Source: Escherichia phage EmilieLinder_Bas103
Reading direction: 5' to 3' (one strand)
Length of the DNA: 40,176 bases
Sequence record: PQ850602.1
The notes beneath the pieces are model-generated. The model was not told where the DNA came from. It ran no database searches and saw only the letters and a list, made by a program, of their open reading frames with translations. Each line of letters opens with the position of its first letter. Positions within the stretch are counted from its first letter, which is position 1. The translations under genes and the position numbers were made by a program. This document shows, in pieces, positions 3,433 to 9,472 of this stretch.

Positions 3433-3591
3433 TCTCACAGTGTACGGACCCAAAGTTCCCCCATAGGGGTCCCTAAAGCCCAGCCAATCACCTTGAGTCA
3501 ACTTTCAGTTGACTTTGAGGGTCCCTAAGGGTTGGGGTTGGTCCTTTGGGTTTGTCTTTGAGTGTTGCTTTGAGTGTCTCTTTGTGTCCCT
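3433..3591 (+). repeat. Terminal repeat (single copy, as at a concatemer junction); mature genome ends predicted here
   Basis: Begins TCTCACAGTGTACGGACC and ends ...GTGTCTCTTTGTGTCCCT, matching T7 160-bp direct terminal repeat from memory; only one copy in window, so repetition is inferred. Confidence 0.6.
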
Positions 3592-3602
3592 ATCTGTTAC
3601 AA

Positions 3603-3732
3603 CCTCCTAAAGTCACCTCCTAAAGTCACCTCCTAAAGTCACCTCCTAAAGTCACCTCCTAAAGTCACCTCCTAAAGTCACCTCCTAAAGTCACCTCCTA
3701 AAGTCACCTCCTAAAGTCACCTCCTAAAGTCA
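3603..3732 (+). repeat. Perfect tandem array: 10 x 13-bp unit CCTCCTAAAGTCA
   Basis: Directly counted 10 identical head-to-tail 13-bp units immediately right of the terminal repeat; T7 has irregular CCTAAAG-containing repeats here. Confidence 0.95.
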
Positions 3733-3893
3733 TTCCTACCGTCTACAGCCTAAAGCCTAAACCTAAAGACCCATCAAGTCAACGCCTATCTTAAAGTATC
3801 CTCTAAAGACCAGCCTAAAGCCTATCCCTAAAGCCTATCCTATAGATGCCCTGTTGTTGCCTATAAAGAGATAATCTTCAATCATTGTCTTTC

Positions 3894-3916
3894 TAATACG
3901 ACTCACTATAGAGAGA
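3894..3916 (+). promoter_or_regulatory. T7 RNAP promoter phiOL (variant, GAG at +1..+3)
   Basis: TAATACGACTCACTATAGAGAGA; one change from consensus in the initiating region. Confidence 0.7.
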
Positions 3917-3979
3917 CAGACAGAGAGAGACTACTTAAAGAGCCTTAAAGAGAGAAATTAAAGTTTTTAAAAAAGAGTA

Positions 3980-4008
3980 TTGACTTAAAGGGTCATAGGG
4001 TTTACTAT
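3980..4008 (+). promoter_or_regulatory. Host sigma70 early promoter A1
   Basis: -35 TTGACT, 17-bp spacer, -10 TACTAT; upstream AAAAAGAGTA A-tract; corresponds to T7 A1. Confidence 0.75.
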
Positions 4009-4105
4009 TCATCTCGTCAACGGGACAACGGCCCAAAGCCACTCCCTGAGATACCGGAGTCAACCGGATAAGTAGGCAGCCTGTAAGCCATACGAAAAAC
4101 AGGCA

Positions 4106-4135
4106 TTGACAACATGCAGTAACATGCAGTAAGAT
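4106..4135 (+). promoter_or_regulatory. Host sigma70 early promoter A2
   Basis: -35 TTGACA, 18-bp spacer, -10 TAAGAT; corresponds to T7 A2. Confidence 0.7.
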
Positions 4136-4213
4136 ACACAGCGTCAATCGGTAGCACACGGTGTCTTCTAGGTGACTTAAGCGCACCACGGCACATAAGG
4201 TGAAACAAAATGG

Positions 4214-4242
4214 TTGACAACATGAAGTAAACACGGTACGAT
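4214..4242 (+). promoter_or_regulatory. Host sigma70 early promoter A3
   Basis: -35 TTGACA, 17-bp spacer, -10 TACGAT; corresponds to T7 A3. Confidence 0.75.
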
Positions 4243-4335
4243 GTACCACATGAAACGACAGTGAGTCACCACACTGAAAGGTGATGCGGTCTAACGAAAC
4301 CTGACCAAAGACGCTCTTTAACAATCTGGTAAATA

Positions 4336-4398
4336 GCTCTTGAGTGCATGACTAGCGGATAACTCAAGGGTATCGCAAGATGCCCTTTATGATATCCA
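4336..4398 (+). promoter_or_regulatory. RNase III processing hairpin R0.3
   Basis: Hairpin ...ACTCAAGGGTATCGCAAGATGCCCTTTATGAT... upstream of gene 0.3, as in T7. Confidence 0.5.
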
Positions 4399-4424
4399 CT
4401 AACAACACTATGAGGTAACACAAG

Positions 4425-4772
4425 ATGGCTATGTCTAACATGACTTACAAAAACGTTTTCGGCCACGCTTACGAAATGCTGAAAGAAAACATCCGTTATG
4501 ATGACATCCGCGACACTGATGACCTGCACGATGCTATTCACATGGCTGCCGATAGCGCCGTTCCGCACTACTACAGCGACATTTTCAGCGTAATGGCAAG
4601 TGAAGGCATTGACCTTGAGTTCGAAGACTCTGGTCTTATGCCGGACACCAAGGACGTGACCCGCATTCTACAGGCTCGCATCTATGAGCAACTCACACTC
4701 GACCTCTGGGAAGACGCTGAGGACTTACTGAACGAGTACCTTGAGGAAGTCGAGGAAGAGGAAGAAGAGTAA
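4425..4772 (+). CDS. 0.3: Ocr, DNA-mimic anti-restriction protein (gp0.3)
   Basis: 115-aa highly acidic [25 protein letters not shown]..., near-identical to T7 Ocr; first early gene after A1-A3. Confidence 0.95.
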
Positions 4773-4924
4773 TGACTAATAGCACGCAATACGGTCTGAC
4801 CGCTCAAACTGTGCTGTTCTATAGTGACATGGTGCGCTGCGGGTTTGATTGGTCGCTCGCAATGGCACACCTTAAGGAACTGTACGAAAACAACAAGGCA
4901 ATAGCTTTGGAATCTGCTGAGTGA
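4772..4924 (+). CDS. 0.4: gp0.4-like small early protein (T7 gp0.4 is reported to inhibit FtsZ)
   Basis: 50-aa [35 protein letters not shown]..., start overlaps 0.3 stop (TAATG); matches T7 gp0.4; absent from ORF track (<60 aa). Confidence 0.8.
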   Translation: MTNSTQYGLTAQTVLFYSDMVRCGFDWSLAMAHLKELYENNKAIALESAE

Positions 4925-4967
4925 TAGACTAAAGGTCGCTCCTAGCGAGTGGCCTTTATGATTATCA
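4921..4967 (+). promoter_or_regulatory. RNase III hairpin R0.5, copy 1 of a 47-bp direct repeat
   Basis: GTGATAGACTAAAGGTCGCTCCTAGCGAGTGGCCTTTATGATTATCA; stem GTCGCTC/GAGTGGC; repeated at 5227-5273. Confidence 0.6.
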
Positions 4968-4992
4968 CTTAACTTGCAATAGGACTAACATC

Positions 4993-5193
4993 ATGAGTAA
5001 ACTTCTGGCAACCTCTAAAATCAAAGGCCAATGCACTGTAACACTGCGCGAGTATGAGCACGGGGCAATGGGGAGCACCTATGTTGTTCGGTACGGTAAA
5101 CAGGTCACGCATTGGGTAAACCTTGTTTTGGCGCAAGAAGAGTATCAAGCCTGTGTGATACACCAAGCAACATGTGCAGGCTGGAATGATTGA
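4993..5193 (+). CDS. Hypothetical early protein (66 aa), cassette ORF between duplicated RNase III sites
   Basis: ORF with RBS (agga) 8 nt upstream; Cys-containing soluble protein MSKLLATSKIKGQCTV...; no resemblance to T7 proteins I can recall. Confidence 0.6.
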   Translation: MSKLLATSKIKGQCTVTLREYEHGAMGSTYVVRYGKQVTHWVNLVLAQEEYQACVIHQATCAGWND

Positions 5194-5226
5194 CACGCAC
5201 TGGACAATAGACTTCGAGTCTACCCA

Positions 5227-5273
5227 GTGATAAACTCAAGGTCGCTCCTAGCGAGTGGCCTTTATGATTATCA
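5227..5273 (+). promoter_or_regulatory. RNase III hairpin R0.5, copy 2 of the 47-bp direct repeat
   Basis: GTGATAAACTCAAGGTCGCTCCTAGCGAGTGGCCTTTATGATTATCA; 45/47 identical to copy at 4921-4967, 306 bp downstream of it. Confidence 0.6.
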
Positions 5274-5292
5274 TTCTATGAGGATTAAACGC

Positions 5293-5463
5293 ATGACGAC
5301 TGGAATCTTTATGGCAACCGTTGCAGTATTCGTAGCGATGGGATGGCGTAGCACCGCGTTGGAGCGCTCAAAGTTCCTTAAGCAACGTGATGCACTACTA
5401 GAGAAGTTTGACTCTGAGGGGCGCGGTCAGGAAGCTCTGGAGGCAATAAAGTGCTATCGCTAA
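5293..5463 (+). CDS. Hypothetical small membrane protein (56 aa), positional analog of T7 gene 0.5
   Basis: ATG with RBS gagga; one predicted TM helix (GIFMATVAVFVAMGW) then charged tail; sequence unlike T7 gp0.5 from memory. Confidence 0.55.
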   Translation: MTTGIFMATVAVFVAMGWRSTALERSKFLKQRDALLEKFDSEGRGQEALEAIKCYR

Positions 5464-5648
5464 TTATCATCACTGGTTACGCTCTAATCCTATACGTGTT
5501 CCTTAGAGACTTCCGCAAGGGTATAAAGGTTCACAAAGCAACGCTAAGTTACTTTAAATACGGATTCCTACCACGGTTTACGGTACGTGAACACAACGGG
5601 CGCTTTAAGGCGAACAAAGTAGGCATCTTTTACGTAGCAACTCATTAA
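5451..5648 (+). CDS. Hypothetical small membrane protein (65 aa), positional analog of T7 gene 0.6
   Basis: GTG start 6 nt after GGAGG, overlapping the previous ORF end; N-terminal TM segment [17 protein letters not shown] then basic tail. Confidence 0.45.
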
Positions 5649-5670
5649 TCACACTTGGAGAATACATAAA

Positions 5671-6750
5671 GTGAACATCACCGACATCATGAACGCTATC
5701 GACGCAATCAAAGCACTGCCAATCTGTGAACTTGACAAGCGCCAAGGTATGCTCATCGACTTACTGGTAGAGATGGTCAACAGCGAAACATGCGATGGAG
5801 AGCTAACCGAACTGAATCAGGCACTTGAGTTTCAAGACTGGTGGACTACCTTGAAGTGTCTCACGGCTGACGCAGGGTTCAAGATGCTCGGTAATGGTCA
5901 CTTCTCGGCTGCTTATAGCCACCCGCTGCTGCCTAACAGAGTGATTAAGGTGGGCTTTAAGAAAGAGGATTCAGGCGCAGCATACACCGCATTCTGCCGC
6001 ATGTATCAGGGCCGTGCCGGTATCCCTAACGTCTACGATGTACAGCGTCACGCTGGATGCTATACGGTTGTACTCGATGCACTGAATGATTGTGAGCGTT
6101 TCAACAATGATGAACATTATAAATACGCTGAGATTGCAAGCGACATCATTGACTACAAATCAGATGAGCACGATGAGCTAACTGGGTGGGATGGCGAGTT
6201 CGTTGAGACTTGCAAGCTAATCCGCAAGTTCTTTGAGGGTATCGCTTCGTTCGACATGCACAGTGGGAACATCATGTTCGATGATAATGATGTACCATAC
6301 ATTACCGACCCTGTATCGTTCTCACAGAAGAAAGACGGTGGCTCGTTCAGTATTGACCCTGAGGAACTCATCAAGGAAGTCGAGGAGGTCGCACGTCAGA
6401 AGGAAATTGACCGCGCTAAGGAACGTAAAGCACGTCATGTGGGTCGATTGGAGGCACGCAGATTCAAACGTCGCAACCGCAAGGCACGTAAAGTACACCA
6501 AGCGAAGCACAAGCGAATGGTCGCTGCGTGGCGAATGGCTGAACGTCAAGAACGACGTAACCATGAGAGAGCTGTAGATGTACTAGGAAGAACCGATAAC
6601 GCTATGCTCTGGGTCAACATGTTCGCTGGGGACTTTAAGGCGCTTGAGGAACGAATCGCAGCGCACTGGTGTAAAGCTGACCGAATGGCTATCGCTAATG
6701 GTCTTCCGCTTAACATCGACAAGAAACTTGACGCAATGCTAATGGGCTGA
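5671..6750 (+). CDS. 0.7: Ser/Thr protein kinase / host transcription shutoff protein (gp0.7)
   Basis: 359-aa ORF, GTG start; near-identical to T7 gp0.7 including the basic C-terminal region. Confidence 0.95.
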
Positions 6751-6805
6751 TAGTCTTATCTTACAGGTCATCTGCGGGTGGCCTGAATAGATACGATTCA
6801 CTAAC
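6751..6805 (+). promoter_or_regulatory. RNase III processing hairpin R1
   Basis: Hairpin TCTTATCTTACAGGTCATCTGCGGGTGGCCTGAATAGATACGA upstream of gene 1, as in T7. Confidence 0.5.
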
Positions 6806-6820
6806 CGGAAGAGGCACTAA

Positions 6821-9472
6821 ATGAACACGATTAACATCGCTAAGAACGACTTCTCTGACATCGAACTGGCTGCTATCCCGTTCAACACTCTGGCTGACCA
6901 TTACGGTGAGCGTTTAGCTCGCGAACAGTTGGCCCTTGAGCATGAGTCTTATGAAATGGGTGAAGCACGCTTCCGCAAGATGTTTGAGCGTCAACTTAAA
7001 GCGGGTGAGGTTGCGGATAACGCTGCCGCTAAGCCTCTCATTACTACTCTGCTCCCCAAGATGATTGCACGCATCAACGATTGGTTTGAGGAAGTGAAAG
7101 CTAAGCGCGGTAAGCGCCCGACAGCCTTCCAGTTCCTGCAAGAAATCAAGCCGGAAGCGATAGCGTACATCACCATTAAGACAACTCTGGCTTGCCTAAC
7201 GAGCGTAGACAATACAACCGTTCAGGCTGTAGCAAGTGCAATCGGTCGAGCTATTGAGGACGAGGCGCGCTTTGGTCGAATCCGTGACCTTGAAGCTAAG
7301 CACTTCAAGAAAAACGTTGAGGAACAACTTAACAAGCGCGTAGGGCACGTCTACAAGAAAGCATTCATGCAGGTTGTAGAAGCGGATATGCTCTCTAAGG
7401 GTCTACTTGGTGGCGAGGCGTGGTCTTCGTGGCATAAGGAAGACTCCATTCACGTTGGTGTGCGCTGCATTGAGATGCTCATTGAGTCCACCGGAATGGT
7501 TAACTTACATCGTCAAAATGCTGGCGTAGTAGGGCAAGACTCGGAGACTATCGAACTTGCACCGGAATACGCTGAGGCTATCGCAACCCGTGCAGGTGCG
7601 CTTGCTGGTATCTCTCCGATGTTCCAGCCTTGCGTAGTTCCTCCTAAACCGTGGACTGGTATTACTGGTGGTGGATATTGGGCTAACGGTCGTCGTCCTC
7701 TGGCACTGGTGCGTACTCACAGCAGGAAAGCACTGATGCGCTACGAAGACGTTTACATGCCTGAGGTGTACAAGGCGATTAACATTGCGCAAAACACCGC
7801 ATGGAAAATCAACAAGAAAGTCCTAGCGGTAGCCAACGTAATCACCAAGTGGAAGCATTGCCCTATAGAGGACATCCCAGCGATTGAACGTGAAGAACTC
7901 CCGATGAAACCGGAAGACATCGACACGAATCCTGAGGCTCTCGCTGCATGGAAACGTGCTGCTGCTGCTGTGTACCGCAAGGACAAGGCTCGCAAGTCTC
8001 GCCGTATCAGCTTAGAGTTCATGCTTGAGCAAGCCAACAAGTTCGCTAACCATAAGGCCATCTGGTTCCCTTACAACATGGACTGGCGCGGTCGCGTTTA
8101 CGCTGTGTCAATGTTCAACCCGCAAGGTAACGACATGACCAAAGGACTGCTGACGCTGGCTAAAGGAAAACCAATCGGCAAGGAAGGTTATTACTGGCTG
8201 AAAATCCACGGTGCAAACTGTGCTGGTGTCGATAAGGTTCCGTTCCCTGAGCGCATCAAGTTCATTGAGGACAACCATGAGAACATCATGGCTTGCGCTA
8301 AGTCTCCACTGGAGAACACTTGGTGGGCTGAGCAAGATTCTCCGTTCTGCTTCCTCGCGTTCTGCTTTGAGTACGCTGGGGTACAGCACCACGGCTTAAG
8401 CTACAACTGCTCTCTTCCGCTGGCGTTCGATGGGTCTTGCTCTGGCATTCAGCACTTCTCCGCTATGCTCCGAGATGAGGTTGGTGGTCGCGCTGTTAAC
8501 CTTCTGCCTAGCGAAACCGTTCAGGACATCTACGGGATTGTCGCTAAGAAAGTCAATTTGATTCTGCAAGAAGACGTAATCAACGGAACCGACAACGAAG
8601 TAGTTACCGTGACTGATGAGAACACTGGTGAAATCTCTGAGAAAGTCAAGCTGGGCACTAAGGCGCTGGCTGGTCAGTGGTTGGCTTACGGTGTAACACG
8701 TAGCGTGACTAAACGTTCAGTAATGACTCTGGCTTACGGGTCCAAAGAGTTCGGCTTCCGTCAACAAGTGCTGGAGGACACCATTCAGCCAGCAATTGAT
8801 TCCGGTAAGGGTCTGATGTTCACGCAACCGAATCAGGCTGCTGGATACATGGCGAAACTGATTTGGGAAGCTGTTAGCGTTACGGTGGTAGCCGCTGTGG
8901 AGGCAATGAACTGGCTCAAGTCCGCTGCTAAGCTGCTGGCTGCTGAGGTCAAAGATAAGAAGACTGGAGAGATTCTTCGCAAGCGTTGCGCTGTACATTG
9001 GGTAACTCCTGATGGGTTCCCAGTGTGGCAGGAATACAAGAAGCCAATTCAGACTCGCTTGAACCTGATTTTCCTCGGTCAGTTCCGCTTACAGCCAACC
9101 ATTAACACTAACAAGGATAGCGAGATTGATGCACACAAACAGGAGTCCGGTATTGCTCCTAACTTTGTACACAGCCAAGACGGTAGTCACCTGCGTAAGA
9201 CTGTAGTGTGGGCGCATGAGAAGTACGGCATCGAGTCTTTTGCATTGATTCACGACTCCTTCGGGACCATTCCGGCTGACGCTGCTAACCTGTTCAAAGC
9301 TGTTCGCGAAACTATGGTGGACACCTATGAGTCTTGTGATGTACTGGCTGACTTCTATGACCAGTTCGCTGACCAGTTGCATGAGTCTCAACTTGACAAA
9401 ATGCCAGCACTTCCGGCTAAAGGTAACTTGAACCTCCAAGACATCCTTAAGTCAGACTTCGCGTTTGCGTAA
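6821..9472 (+). CDS. 1: T7-type single-subunit DNA-dependent RNA polymerase (gp1)
   Basis: 883-aa ORF, about 98 percent identical to T7 RNAP from memory; specificity-loop ...QPNQAAGYM... (Asn as in T7), consistent with the T7-type promoters in this window. Confidence 0.98.
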   Translation: MNTINIAKNDFSDIELAAIPFNTLADHYGERLAREQLALEHESYEMGEARFRKMFERQLKAGEVADNAAAKPLITTLLPKMIARINDWFEEVKAKRGKRPTAFQFLQEIKPEAIAYITIKTTLACLTSVDNTTVQAVASAIGRAIEDEARFGRIRDLEAKHFKKNVEEQLNKRVGHVYKKAFMQVVEADMLSKGLLGGEAWSSWHKEDSIHVGVRCIEMLIESTGMVNLHRQNAGVVGQDSETIELAPEYAEAIATRAGALAGISPMFQPCVVPPKPWTGITGGGYWANGRRPLALVRTHSRKALMRYEDVYMPEVYKAINIAQNTAWKINKKVLAVANVITKWKHCPIEDIPAIEREELPMKPEDIDTNPEALAAWKRAAAAVYRKDKARKSRRISLEFMLEQANKFANHKAIWFPYNMDWRGRVYAVSMFNPQGNDMTKGLLTLAKGKPIGKEGYYWLKIHGANCAGVDKVPFPERIKFIEDNHENIMACAKSPLENTWWAEQDSPFCFLAFCFEYAGVQHHGLSYNCSLPLAFDGSCSGIQHFSAMLRDEVGGRAVNLLPSETVQDIYGIVAKKVNLILQEDVINGTDNEVVTVTDENTGEISEKVKLGTKALAGQWLAYGVTRSVTKRSVMTLAYGSKEFGFRQQVLEDTIQPAIDSGKGLMFTQPNQAAGYMAKLIWEAVSVTVVAAVEAMNWLKSAAKLLAAEVKDKKTGEILRKRCAVHWVTPDGFPVWQEYKKPIQTRLNLIFLGQFRLQPTINTNKDSEIDAHKQESGIAPNFVHSQDGSHLRKTVVWAHEKYGIESFALIHDSFGTIPADAANLFKAVRETMVDTYESCDVLADFYDQFADQLHESQLDKMPALPAKGNLNLQDILKSDFAFA

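Follow-up and report, generated by a model that had tools for sequence, protein, structure and literature searches.

Two small early genes with predicted membrane anchors, one a T3-type allele of gene 0.6, in Escherichia phage EmilieLinder_Bas103

Gene organization of the early region

The window analyzed here is the whole 40,176-nt stretch of DNA from Escherichia phage EmilieLinder_Bas103 (sequence record PQ850602.1), and all features described below lie on its plus strand. Two small open reading frames are located upstream of gene 0.7. ORF A (5293-5463) starts with ATG and encodes 56 amino acids, with a putative N-terminal membrane anchor at about residues 2-18 and a charged tail of two predicted helices; it belongs to phrog_25811. 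ORF B (5451-5648) starts with GTG and encodes 65 amino acids, with a predicted N-terminal membrane helix and a basic, three-stranded beta mini-domain; by sequence it is a T3-type gp0.6 (phrog_2385). Lengths, coordinates and the GTG start agree with the original prediction for this region.

Both ORFs are preceded by a Shine-Dalgarno sequence. In ORF A this is GAGGA at 5280-5284, read from the sequence 8 nt 5' of the ATG, and in ORF B it is GGAGG at 5439-5443, within codons L49-E50 of ORF A. Start codon and Shine-Dalgarno of ORF B are thus both contained in the 3' end of ORF A, and the two coding regions overlap by 13 nt, an arrangement compatible with the translational coupling that had been proposed for them. 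The spacer between GGAGG and GTG is 7 nt (caataaa) instead of the 6 nt first given, a trivial correction. The GGAGG is kept wherever a T7-like homologue has the 13-nt overlap, even in loci L013 and L014, which are 57% diverged, and an equivalent GGAGG or AGGAG precedes the start of ORF A in T3-like and metagenomic homologues.

Longer versions of ORF A have been annotated in related phages (61 aa in Bas104, 78 aa in Bas64 and Bas65). Both starts were rejected because they lack a properly placed Shine-Dalgarno, and the 78-aa start also because its reading frame crosses the RNase III hairpin; the 56-aa start is preferred because it is conserved across all lineages. ORF B is omitted from several annotations, such as those of SYGE1 and JB01.

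ORF A and ORF B fill the interval from an R0.5-type RNase III processing hairpin to the 0.7 kinase gene, where T7 has 0.5 and 0.6A/B. The hairpin at 5227-5274 folds at -19.3 kcal/mol (z -2.95), and its 3' arm (TGGCCTTTATGATTA...) recurs in T7 and T3 ahead of genes 0.5/0.6, the matching T3 stretch falling inside the annotated RNase III site R0.5. Downstream of both ORFs are the genes of the 0.7 protein kinase (5671-6750), which shows 99% identity to the N-terminus of the T7 kinase, and of RNA polymerase.

The hairpin at 5227-5274 is a second copy. A direct repeat of 69 nt, consisting of the 3' end of gene 0.4 and the R0.5 hairpin, was found by repeat search at 4899-4967 and again at 5205-5273, with 87% identity between the copies and a spacing of 306 nt; the hairpin of the first copy folds at -23.6 kcal/mol (z -4.9). 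The two copies bracket a 0.45 cassette with a gp0.45-type gene at 4993-5193, whose 66-aa product matches phrog_6500 at E 2e-44 and is 69% identical to 13a gp0.45 and about 91% identical to phiSG-JL2 gp0.45. This cassette is an extra, Bas104 being without it. Neither the gp0.45-type gene nor the duplicated hairpin just upstream of ORF A was mentioned in the original prediction.

Host polymerase would transcribe ORF A and ORF B. Matches to the A1-A3-like promoter consensus occur at 3980-4242, upstream of both ORFs, in numbers not above those of shuffled sequence, and an Rfam scan of 3500-7000 returned no matches. Cleavage by RNase III at the 5227-5274 hairpin would then leave one processed early mRNA carrying ORF A, ORF B and 0.7, with the hairpin as its 5' end.

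Conservation and coding capacity

ORFs of similar length are abundant by chance in this DNA, with dozens across all frames, and ORF A and ORF B might be read as chance ORFs in the leader or spacer of the 0.7 mRNA, one or both of them not translated. The frequency of such short frames, the GTG start of ORF B and the behavior of annotations, which skip ORF B or vary the start of ORF A, would fit that reading. The two ORFs stand above chance, however, because they are conserved. In pairwise comparisons over 65 ungapped codons, ORF B and its homologues from T3-like phages, K11 and L013/L014 give saturated synonymous differences (pS 0.69-0.85) against pN of only 0.17-0.26, so that the protein has been maintained where synonymous sites are exhausted. 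ORF A and a 57%-identical homologue give pS 0.57 and pN 0.27; pN reaches 0.46 between lineages, and among very close relatives, where counts are tiny, dN approximates dS. Purifying selection has kept both families conserved and is strong for ORF B. Start positions and the Shine-Dalgarno sequences before them are likewise conserved across lineages, ORF B is represented by 162 protein clusters and by 790 phage records, and its AF2 model is confident (pLDDT 93). A lack of translation is thereby made extremely improbable, and we regard it as close to certain that ORF A and ORF B are genuine early (class I) accessory genes with the identities assigned here.

BASEL phages Bas104 and Bas64 share 98% identity with this T7-like coliphage, and the annotated hypothetical proteins of Bas104 that correspond to ORF A and ORF B match them at 97-100% (ORF A 100%). 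Both proteins have already been annotated as hypothetical in these near-identical phages and do not represent a new system.

ORF B is a T3-type gene 0.6

ORF B matches phrog_2385 over residues 1-65 at E 3.2e-28 in a PHROG profile search, and BLASTP aligns 65/65 residues with 68% identity to T3 gp0.6 and 71% to K11 gp0.6A. These similarities identify it as the T3-type allele of gene 0.6. The 790 records of the family include many from Klebsiella phages, and almost all of those listed have the length of a T7-like genome, about 38-42 kb; in the phage collection the T3 type of gene 0.6 is commoner than the T7 type (790 vs 213 records). At 50% identity the family falls into only 12 clusters. In an alignment of 111 sequences (A1), ORF B carries all invariant residues (G24, A30, T44, R46, F52, K53, N55, K56, V57, G58 and T64); residues 41-65 are almost invariant and the transmembrane sequence is variable.

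The T3 gp0.6, phiYeO3-12 gp0.6A and K11 gp0.6A proteins resemble ORF B in the N-terminal transmembrane helix, in an invariant 19-residue tail and in the place directly before the 0.7 kinase gene. Differences lie in the surroundings. The GTG of ORF B is placed 13 nt inside the preceding gene, whereas T3-like phages use an ATG, either in an ATGA overlap or free-standing; ORF B is not followed by a gene 0.65; and the backbone around ORF B is T7-like, with ocr and a T7-type 0.4, whereas a T3-like backbone has SAMase.

Searches beyond the family gave little. Scans of NCBIfam, PADLOC and Pfam, the latter in a copy that seems to be without the gp0.5 model PF26813, found no matches to ORF A or ORF B, and a sequence-profile search of the PDB found none for ORF B and only chance-level matches for ORF A (E 0.5 or worse). 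Foldseek with the ORF B model gave a best E of 2.1 against the PDB and only members of its own family in BFVD, where the best match was the phiYeO3-12 'putative 0.6B protein' (TM-score 0.97); the three-stranded sheet has no structural relative outside the family in either database. The ORF B profile, run against 1.84 billion representative proteins, retrieved only 12 small clusters (32-93 aa) and no relative that is larger or characterized. A literature search on the ORF A and ORF B families found no experimental or functional study.

ORF A belongs to a small family in the gene 0.5 slot

ORF A matches phrog_25811 at E 4.7e-8, its residues 5-53 aligning with profile positions 3-50 of 52. This family is present in 48 phage records and is a small one, located in the gene 0.5 slot of T3-like phages and of a subset of T7-like phages. 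In all five T3-like phages examined a member lies directly upstream of gene 0.6, and inspection of loci showed the family upstream of the 0.6-slot gene in some T7-like phages as well. Among 5.8 billion sequences, the T7-like subfamily of ORF A makes up no more than 9 protein clusters. A scan of IMG/VR with the ORF A alignment yielded only two loci, and one of these, L012 on a high-GC 73-kb contig, was rejected as a spurious out-of-frame match.

The closest described counterparts are 52-aa proteins of Teetrevirus, such as gp3 of Citrobacter phage SH2 and Kpn11_03 of Kpn-11mx, and tblastn finds ORF A 35-41% identical to Teetrevirus proteins. As in ORF A, a hydrophobic helix ending in GW is followed by a basic helix and then by the D-x-EGRG-x-EA-x-E motif, which is invariant, and the gene lies immediately before the 0.6-slot gene and overlaps it, often 3' of gp0.45. 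ORF A exceeds these proteins by 4 residues, and its overlap with the next gene is 13 nt vs 4 nt. In the family alignment (A3) the motif appears in ORF A as an invariant D-x-E-G-R-G-x-E-A-x-E from D40 to E50, followed by K53, and W18 is conserved.

Relation to T7 gp0.5 and gp0.6

The two ORFs occupy positions that in T7 belong to gp0.5 (phrog_16572, PF26813) and gp0.6A/B (phrog_8393, PF26851), and several likenesses accompany this. T7 gp0.5, a class I product of 47 aa encoded straight after R0.5, is hydrophobic and putatively membrane-associated, and its gene overlaps 0.6A by ATGA much as ORF A overlaps its neighbor; gp0.6A/B, encoded before 0.7, is small, very basic (pI 10.4), early and dispensable. 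ORF A and ORF B might therefore be taken for highly diverged orthologues that keep the functions of gp0.5 and gp0.6, so that nothing has been replaced; for gp0.6 the function would be inhibition of MreB, of which T7 gp0.6 is reportedly an inhibitor (Molshanski-Mor et al. 2014). The shared slots, with a small, hydrophobic first gene overlapping the second in both phages, are consistent with orthology, and so is a faint C-terminal BLASTP resemblance of RKINKIGSGYDRTH to a 15-residue stretch (E 0.05).

Direct comparisons point the other way. BLASTP of ORF A and ORF B with T7 gp0.5 and gp0.6 gave nothing significant. The PHROGs differ, ORF A lacking a phrog_16572 match even at E up to 10 and ORF B lacking a phrog_8393 match, and hhalign returned probabilities of 0.5% for the ORF B family (A1) with the T7 0.6A family (A5) and 0.7% for the ORF A family with T7 gp0.5. 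The conserved core of T7 gp0.6, VMPIHT.NGATVCTPDGFAMKQRIERLKREL, is absent from ORF B. In composition, T7 gp0.5 is hydrophobic and glycine-rich nearly throughout and, unlike ORF A, has no charged helical tail, whereas gp0.6A/B is soluble, without the hydrophobic segment of ORF B and unrelated to it in sequence; its family also extends to large myoviruses, whereas the listed ORF B records are almost all of T7-like genome size. In phage JacobBurckhardt, moreover, the two modules are joined by an illegitimate crossover at ATCATCA and not by homologous alignment.

Two local similarities were considered and set aside. The C-termini of T7 gp0.6A and ORF B (NKIG..Y..TH and NKVG.FY.ATH) were rejected as homologous because the T7 0.6A family does not itself conserve the segment, most members ending at INKI or LNNI, and because of the hhalign value of 0.5%. 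A BLASTP likeness (E 0.05) between ORF A and the 0.6B extension of T7 is at chance level.

Orthology is accordingly very improbable, and on sequence grounds neither ORF is related to T7 gp0.5 or gp0.6. The original prediction that neither protein resembles its T7 counterpart was borne out, the clear homology that it had named in advance as counter-evidence being absent. Its further claim, that T7 genes 0.5/0.6 are replaced here, holds in so far as the proteins are not homologous. As a novelty it does not stand: the 0.6 gene is of the T3/phiYeO3-12/K11 type, and the exchange is a routine replacement of accessory genes, part of the allelic mosaicism already known at the 0.5 and 0.6 slots.

Mosaic arrangements were seen at several loci, in a sample of 19 that were retrieved mostly through ORF A matches and is biased to that extent. 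ORF A is paired with a T7-type 0.6A in JacobBurckhardt and at locus L011, and in T3 and K11 ORF B occurs on its own, with ORF A missing; ORF A thus appears not to be an obligate partner of ORF B. In L013/L014 both ORFs are present and the kinase is absent, and in phage 13a a deletion fuses the first 17 codons of ORF A to the 3' end of the kinase gene. None of the 19 loci carries both types of 0.6 in one phage. These exchanges and losses favor the view that the two genes are dispensable. The amounts of ORF A may be coupled to whichever allele of 0.6 follows it.

Membrane anchors and predicted structure

Each protein begins with a hydrophobic helix and continues in a charged or basic tail, as had been predicted. 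The 17-residue Kyte-Doolittle mean is 2.43 for residues 2-18 of ORF B and 1.82 for residues 1-17 of ORF A; at about 15-17 residues the segment of ORF A is short, and averaged over 19 residues it reaches a borderline 1.55. ORF B has a pI of 10.4, with 11 K/R vs 2 D/E, and ORF A has 9 K/R vs 7 D/E. For phage AP5, a published TMHMM analysis found a transmembrane domain in its T3-type gene 0.6 (PMC4283147), and NCBI names one member of the ORF B family 'putative transmembrane protein'.

In the AF2 model of ORF B, a helix (2-28) is followed by strands at 31-36, 40-46 and 52-57 and a short helix at 59-63. The model of ORF A consists of helices at 2-19, 22-41 and 45-55, with moderate confidence (pLDDT 73.5). 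Conservation along helix 2-28 of ORF B is alpha-helically periodic, with a peak at 95 degrees that 50/5000 permutations reach; for the membrane segment alone the periodicity is not significant (878/5000 permutations).

Charge distribution was counted in 111 members of the ORF B family and 13 of the ORF A family. The mean number of K/R before the helix is 0, and within 15 residues after it 4.2 (ORF B) and 4.9 (ORF A); the predicted N-tails of both families have only 1-3 residues. Because no K/R precedes the helix and 4-5 follow it, an N-out/C-in orientation is predicted, and both proteins are probably single-pass anchors of the inner membrane with cytoplasmic tails.

Possible roles in infection

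With this topology, ORF B would present its nearly invariant basic beta mini-domain, and ORF A its helical hairpin with the invariant DxEGRGxEAxE motif, at the cytoplasmic face of the membrane. There the tails may bind a membrane-proximal target conserved across Enterobacterales. A specific binding module in ORF B would be in keeping with the near-invariance of residues 41-65 beside a variable transmembrane sequence, and with the helical periodicity of conservation along helix 2-28. If the tails do bind such a target, the proteins would be dispensable host-takeover factors, equal in functional class to their slot neighbors T7 gp0.4 and gp0.6, whose targets are FtsZ and, reportedly, MreB. A host-takeover role acting on a target at the cytoplasmic face is suggested by genomic position and topology, and we hold it at somewhat less than even odds. 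For the whole statement taken jointly, that is, the identities, the membrane anchoring and a dispensable early role in host takeover, we estimate a probability of about 0.5. A target in common with T7 gp0.6 is not firmly implied by the shared slot, because accessory slots routinely hold unrelated functions.

A more specific and speculative proposal, which we consider unlikely as it stands, is that an uncharacterized early mechanism of host manipulation at the inner membrane is represented by both ORFs together or by ORF B without its partner, ORF B being present in about 800 sequenced Autographiviridae. A single-pass anchor with a basic beta mini-domain of about 35 residues and novel fold would block an envelope or membrane-proximal machine conserved in Enterobacterales and distinct from FtsZ, MreB and the other known targets of T7 early proteins. 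ORF A would be a modulator coupled to it, acting by way of the DxEGRGxEAxE hairpin.

The genes might instead act against host defence, with the membrane-anchored tails neutralizing a membrane-associated abortive-infection or exclusion system. Their neighbor in the early accessory region is ocr, which neutralizes restriction and BREX; their alleles turn over by recombination, and ORF A diverges fast (pN 0.46 between lineages). In T7-like phages, counter-defence genes are concentrated in the early accessory region (bioRxiv 10.1101/2023.04.06.535777). ORF B, however, is very strongly conserved over many host genera, which is unusual for a protein that tracks variable and sporadic defence systems. 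Neither sequence is present in the supplements of a phage accessory-gene screen (Silas et al. preprint), and PADLOC, although uninformative for anti-defence proteins, gave no similarity. An anti-defence role is on this evidence improbable.

Superinfection exclusion, in which the inner-membrane proteins would block genome entry of a second T7-like phage, for example by disturbing the gp14-16 ejection channel, is slightly less probable again; the original prediction had raised it alongside modulation of host physiology. Small early single-pass membrane proteins would suit such a role, T4 Imm and Sp being analogous exclusion proteins of the membrane, and conservation of the ejection core proteins extends over the phages in which ORF B is conserved. 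The conserved parts of ORF A and ORF B, however, are predicted to be cytoplasmic, with almost no periplasmic residues, and an incoming channel is met first from the periplasm. The selective value of exclusion is doubtful in the short lytic infections of T7-like phages, no experimental report of it was found in the literature, and neither protein shows sequence or fold similarity to any characterized protein.

A host-takeover role at the cytoplasmic face of the membrane remains the preferred reading. With 790 records, T3-type gp0.6 ranks among the commoner early proteins in T7-like phages. As a conserved early protein of 65 residues, apparently membrane-tethered and probably binding a conserved host target, ORF B is a cheap and tractable candidate for finding a takeover target, and the BASEL phages offer a ready genetic system for T3-type gp0.6.

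Gene status of ORF A and ORF B

The two ORFs (both on the + strand) lie exactly where the original prediction placed them, at 5293-5463 (ORF A, 56 aa, phrog_25811) and 5451-5648 (ORF B, 65 aa, phrog_2385). Dozens of ORFs of comparable length are found in all frames of the window, so length alone is no proof that either is a gene; both are considered real on the basis of their conservation. ORF B matches its PHROG at E 3e-28 and is represented in 162 protein clusters of a 5.8-billion-protein collection and in 790 phage records (tblastn). Against T3-like, K11 and metagenomic homologues its pS is 0.69-0.85 (saturated) and its pN just 0.17-0.26. ORF A matches phrog_25811 at E 5e-8 and occurs in 48 phage records; pS and pN are 0.57 and 0.27 against a 57%-identical homologue, and 0.9 and 0.46 against the T3-like version. 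It is very improbable that either ORF is untranslated.

ORF A has GAGGA 8 nt upstream of its ATG. ORF B overlaps it by 13 nt and begins with GTG, preceded by GGAGG at 5439-5443 with a spacer of 7 nt rather than the predicted 6 nt, and a Shine-Dalgarno sequence precedes the same start position in every lineage compared. Translational coupling from ORF A to ORF B is plausible, because the Shine-Dalgarno sequence and start of ORF B sit within ORF A in both lineages and because T7 0.5 and 0.6A, which are unrelated to these ORFs, likewise overlap (ATGA).

Family identity and the early region

Neither ORF is homologous to T7 gp0.5 or gp0.6. BLASTP against these proteins gave nothing significant, the T7 proteins belong to different PHROGs (16572 for gp0.5 and 8393 for gp0.6), and profile-profile comparison yielded probabilities of 0.5% for the ORF B family with the T7 0.6A family and 0.7% for the ORF A family with T7 gp0.5. 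A faint C-terminal likeness between T7 0.6A and ORF B was attributed to chance, the segment not being conserved inside the T7 0.6A family. T7 gp0.5 itself continues to be described (PMC12798971) as a class I protein that is uncharacterised and putatively associated with the membrane.

Non-homology, membrane character and coupling, as originally proposed, are thus retained; the implied novelty is not, since ORF B represents the T3-type gene 0.6 and ORF A often lies next to that gene on its upstream side. Over all 65 residues ORF B shares 68% identity with T3 gp0.6 and 71% with K11 gp0.6A, and a search of the viral structure library with its AlphaFold model ranked the phiYeO3-12 "putative 0.6B protein" first (TM-score 0.97). 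ORF A is the counterpart, in the T7 lineage, of a 52-aa Teetrevirus protein, with which it shares a hydrophobic N-terminus closing in G-W, a following basic helix, and an invariant D-x-E-G-R-G-x-E-A-x-E..K motif in the family alignment. In SH2, Kpn-11mx, F1M1C, KPP-5 and phiSG-JL2, the 52-aa protein is encoded directly 5' of gene 0.6 with an ATGA overlap, usually downstream of gp0.45. As genes, ORF A and ORF B are nothing new; near-identical phages already have annotations for both.

The window is the genome of a T7-like coliphage; over the first 25 kb it shares 98% identity with the BASEL phages AnnaIndermaur_Bas104 and JeanTinguely_Bas64. Matches to A1-A3-like host promoters at 3980-4242 (consensus matches only, with a scan count not above that of shuffled sequence) are followed by ocr (gene 0.3, 4425-4772), gene 0.4 (4772-4924, 90% identity to T7 gp0.4), an R0.5-type RNase III hairpin (4921-4967), a gp0.45-type gene of 66 aa (4993-5193), a second hairpin copy (5227-5274), ORF A, ORF B, the 0.7 kinase (5671-6750) and the RNA polymerase gene (from 6821). 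From the Teetrevirus gene order and the features shared with ORF A, the 0.45 - ORF A - 0.6 order is therefore a T3-group early module on a T7-type backbone (ocr and T7-type 0.4).

The gp0.45-type gene is flanked by a 69-nt direct repeat (4899-4967 and 5205-5273; 87% identity, 306-nt spacing), each copy comprising the final codons of gene 0.4 and the R0.5 hairpin. Because this unit occurs only once in Bas104 and Bas64, which lack a 0.45 gene, the 0.45 cassette looks inserted, or deletable, through recombination between RNase III sites. Bas104 also carries an additional 68-aa ORF (Bas104_0006, 389-595) between the A promoters and ocr. It seems absent from the window (compared at about 4243-4424), as the window's ocr begins about 300 nt earlier, and represents a further cassette difference between phages of 98% identity.

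Mosaic of the 0.5 and 0.6 slots

Across 19 loci, mostly retrieved through ORF A matches and hence a biased sample, the 0.5 and 0.6 slots between R0.5 and the 0.7 kinase behave as independent cassettes. ORF A occurs with ORF B in the window, Bas104, Bas64, SYGE1, JB01 and two metagenomic contigs, and Teetrevirus loci carry their own versions of both. ORF A is combined with a T7-type 0.6A in JacobBurckhardt and in locus L011, T7 0.5 with T7 0.6A in T7 and KKE5P, and ORF B stands without ORF A in T3 and K11. The arrangements in T3, K11 and JacobBurckhardt indicate that the two are not obligate partners. Both 0.6 types together were seen in none of the 19 loci of this ORF A-biased sample. The T3-type 0.6 allele is the commoner one in the phage collection, with 790 records against 213 for the T7 type. 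ORF A and T7 gp0.5 are each a minority allele, with 48 and 78 records respectively. The pair in the window is accordingly a known mosaic.

Direct evidence for illegitimate exchange between module types is found in Escherichia phage JacobBurckhardt (MZ501078, 1447-1503, aligned with 5451-5475 of the window). A crossover at the microhomology ATCATCA has produced a hybrid ORF of 18 codons, in which the opening 7 codons of ORF B run into the closing codons of T7 gene 0.5; a T7-type 0.6A follows.

In phage 13a (NC_011045, 1169-1303), a 44-aa protein annotated 'gp0.7' consists of the first 17 residues of ORF A (MTTGIIMATFAVIVAMGWR) and the last ~25 residues of the kinase. The deletion took the remainder of ORF A together with the 0.6 slot (ORF B) and most or nearly all of the kinase; these genes are therefore dispensable for a viable phage. 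Two metagenomic T7-like contigs (L013, 959-1553; L014, 1128-1716) retain both ORF A, at 57% identity, and ORF B; as in the window, the overlap is 13 nt and ORF B starts with GTG. The kinase is absent, and an unrelated acidic 65-aa ORF occupies its place upstream of the RNA polymerase gene.

Predicted membrane anchor and possible role

The N-terminal segment is strongly hydrophobic in both proteins (Kyte-Doolittle mean: ORF B, 2.43 over residues 2-18; ORF A, 1.82 over residues 1-17). Among 111 ORF B and 13 ORF A relatives, no K/R lies on its N-side, and the 15 residues on its C-side contain on average 4.2 and 4.9, respectively. By the positive-inside rule, each protein is predicted to be an anchor that spans the membrane once, N-out/C-in, and leaves essentially no residues in the periplasm. 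A transmembrane domain was predicted by TMHMM for the T3-type gene 0.6 of phage AP5 (PMC4283147).

The AlphaFold model of ORF A (pLDDT 73.5) has three helices, with the EGRG motif in the turn between the last two. In that of ORF B (pLDDT 93), a long helix (2-28) leads into three strands (31-36, 40-46, 52-57), and a short helix follows at 59-63. Residues 41-65 of this family are almost invariant, and the membrane segment varies apart from Y10, I13 and F17. The conservation profile of helix 2-28 shows a helical periodicity reached by 50 of 5000 permutations; for the membrane part alone it was not significant (878/5000).

Pfam, NCBIfam, PADLOC, PDB sequence profiles and Foldseek against PDB and BFVD gave no relatives of known function. 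For ORF A and ORF B, the lack of a Pfam hit is weaker evidence than it seems: the precomputed annotations name recent Pfam families for T7 early proteins (PF26807, Phage_T7_GP04; PF26851 on gp0.6A homologues and PF26813 on longer ones), and the Pfam scan missed even the window's gp0.4, these models seemingly being absent from the library searched. Only 12 small clusters came out of an exhaustive profile search covering 1.84 billion representative proteins, so that the ORF B family has no detectable relatives past this handful. Almost all phage records with ORF B are genomes of T7-like size. No functional study of either family was found in the literature. T3-type gp0.6 is a very widespread and strongly conserved early membrane protein, for which the BASEL phages would offer a simple test system.

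The early proteins of T7 include host-takeover factors, among them gp0.4, whose target is FtsZ, and gp0.6, whose target is MreB. Given the position of ORF A and ORF B among such genes, our best guess is that they may have a dispensable host-takeover role. Anti-defence and superinfection exclusion are both live rivals to it. The almost invariant tail, variable membrane segment and periodicity of helix 2-28 suggest that the ORF B helix would serve mainly to tether the protein and may pack through one face. Specific binding would fall to the basic beta mini-domain, with a target at the cytoplasmic membrane face that may be conserved across Enterobacterales.

In the Salmonella phage phiSG-JL2 (1650-1889), gp0.6A reaches 79 aa because 14 residues are repeated exactly in tandem where the membrane helix meets the first strand, so an insertion is evidently tolerated next to the membrane.
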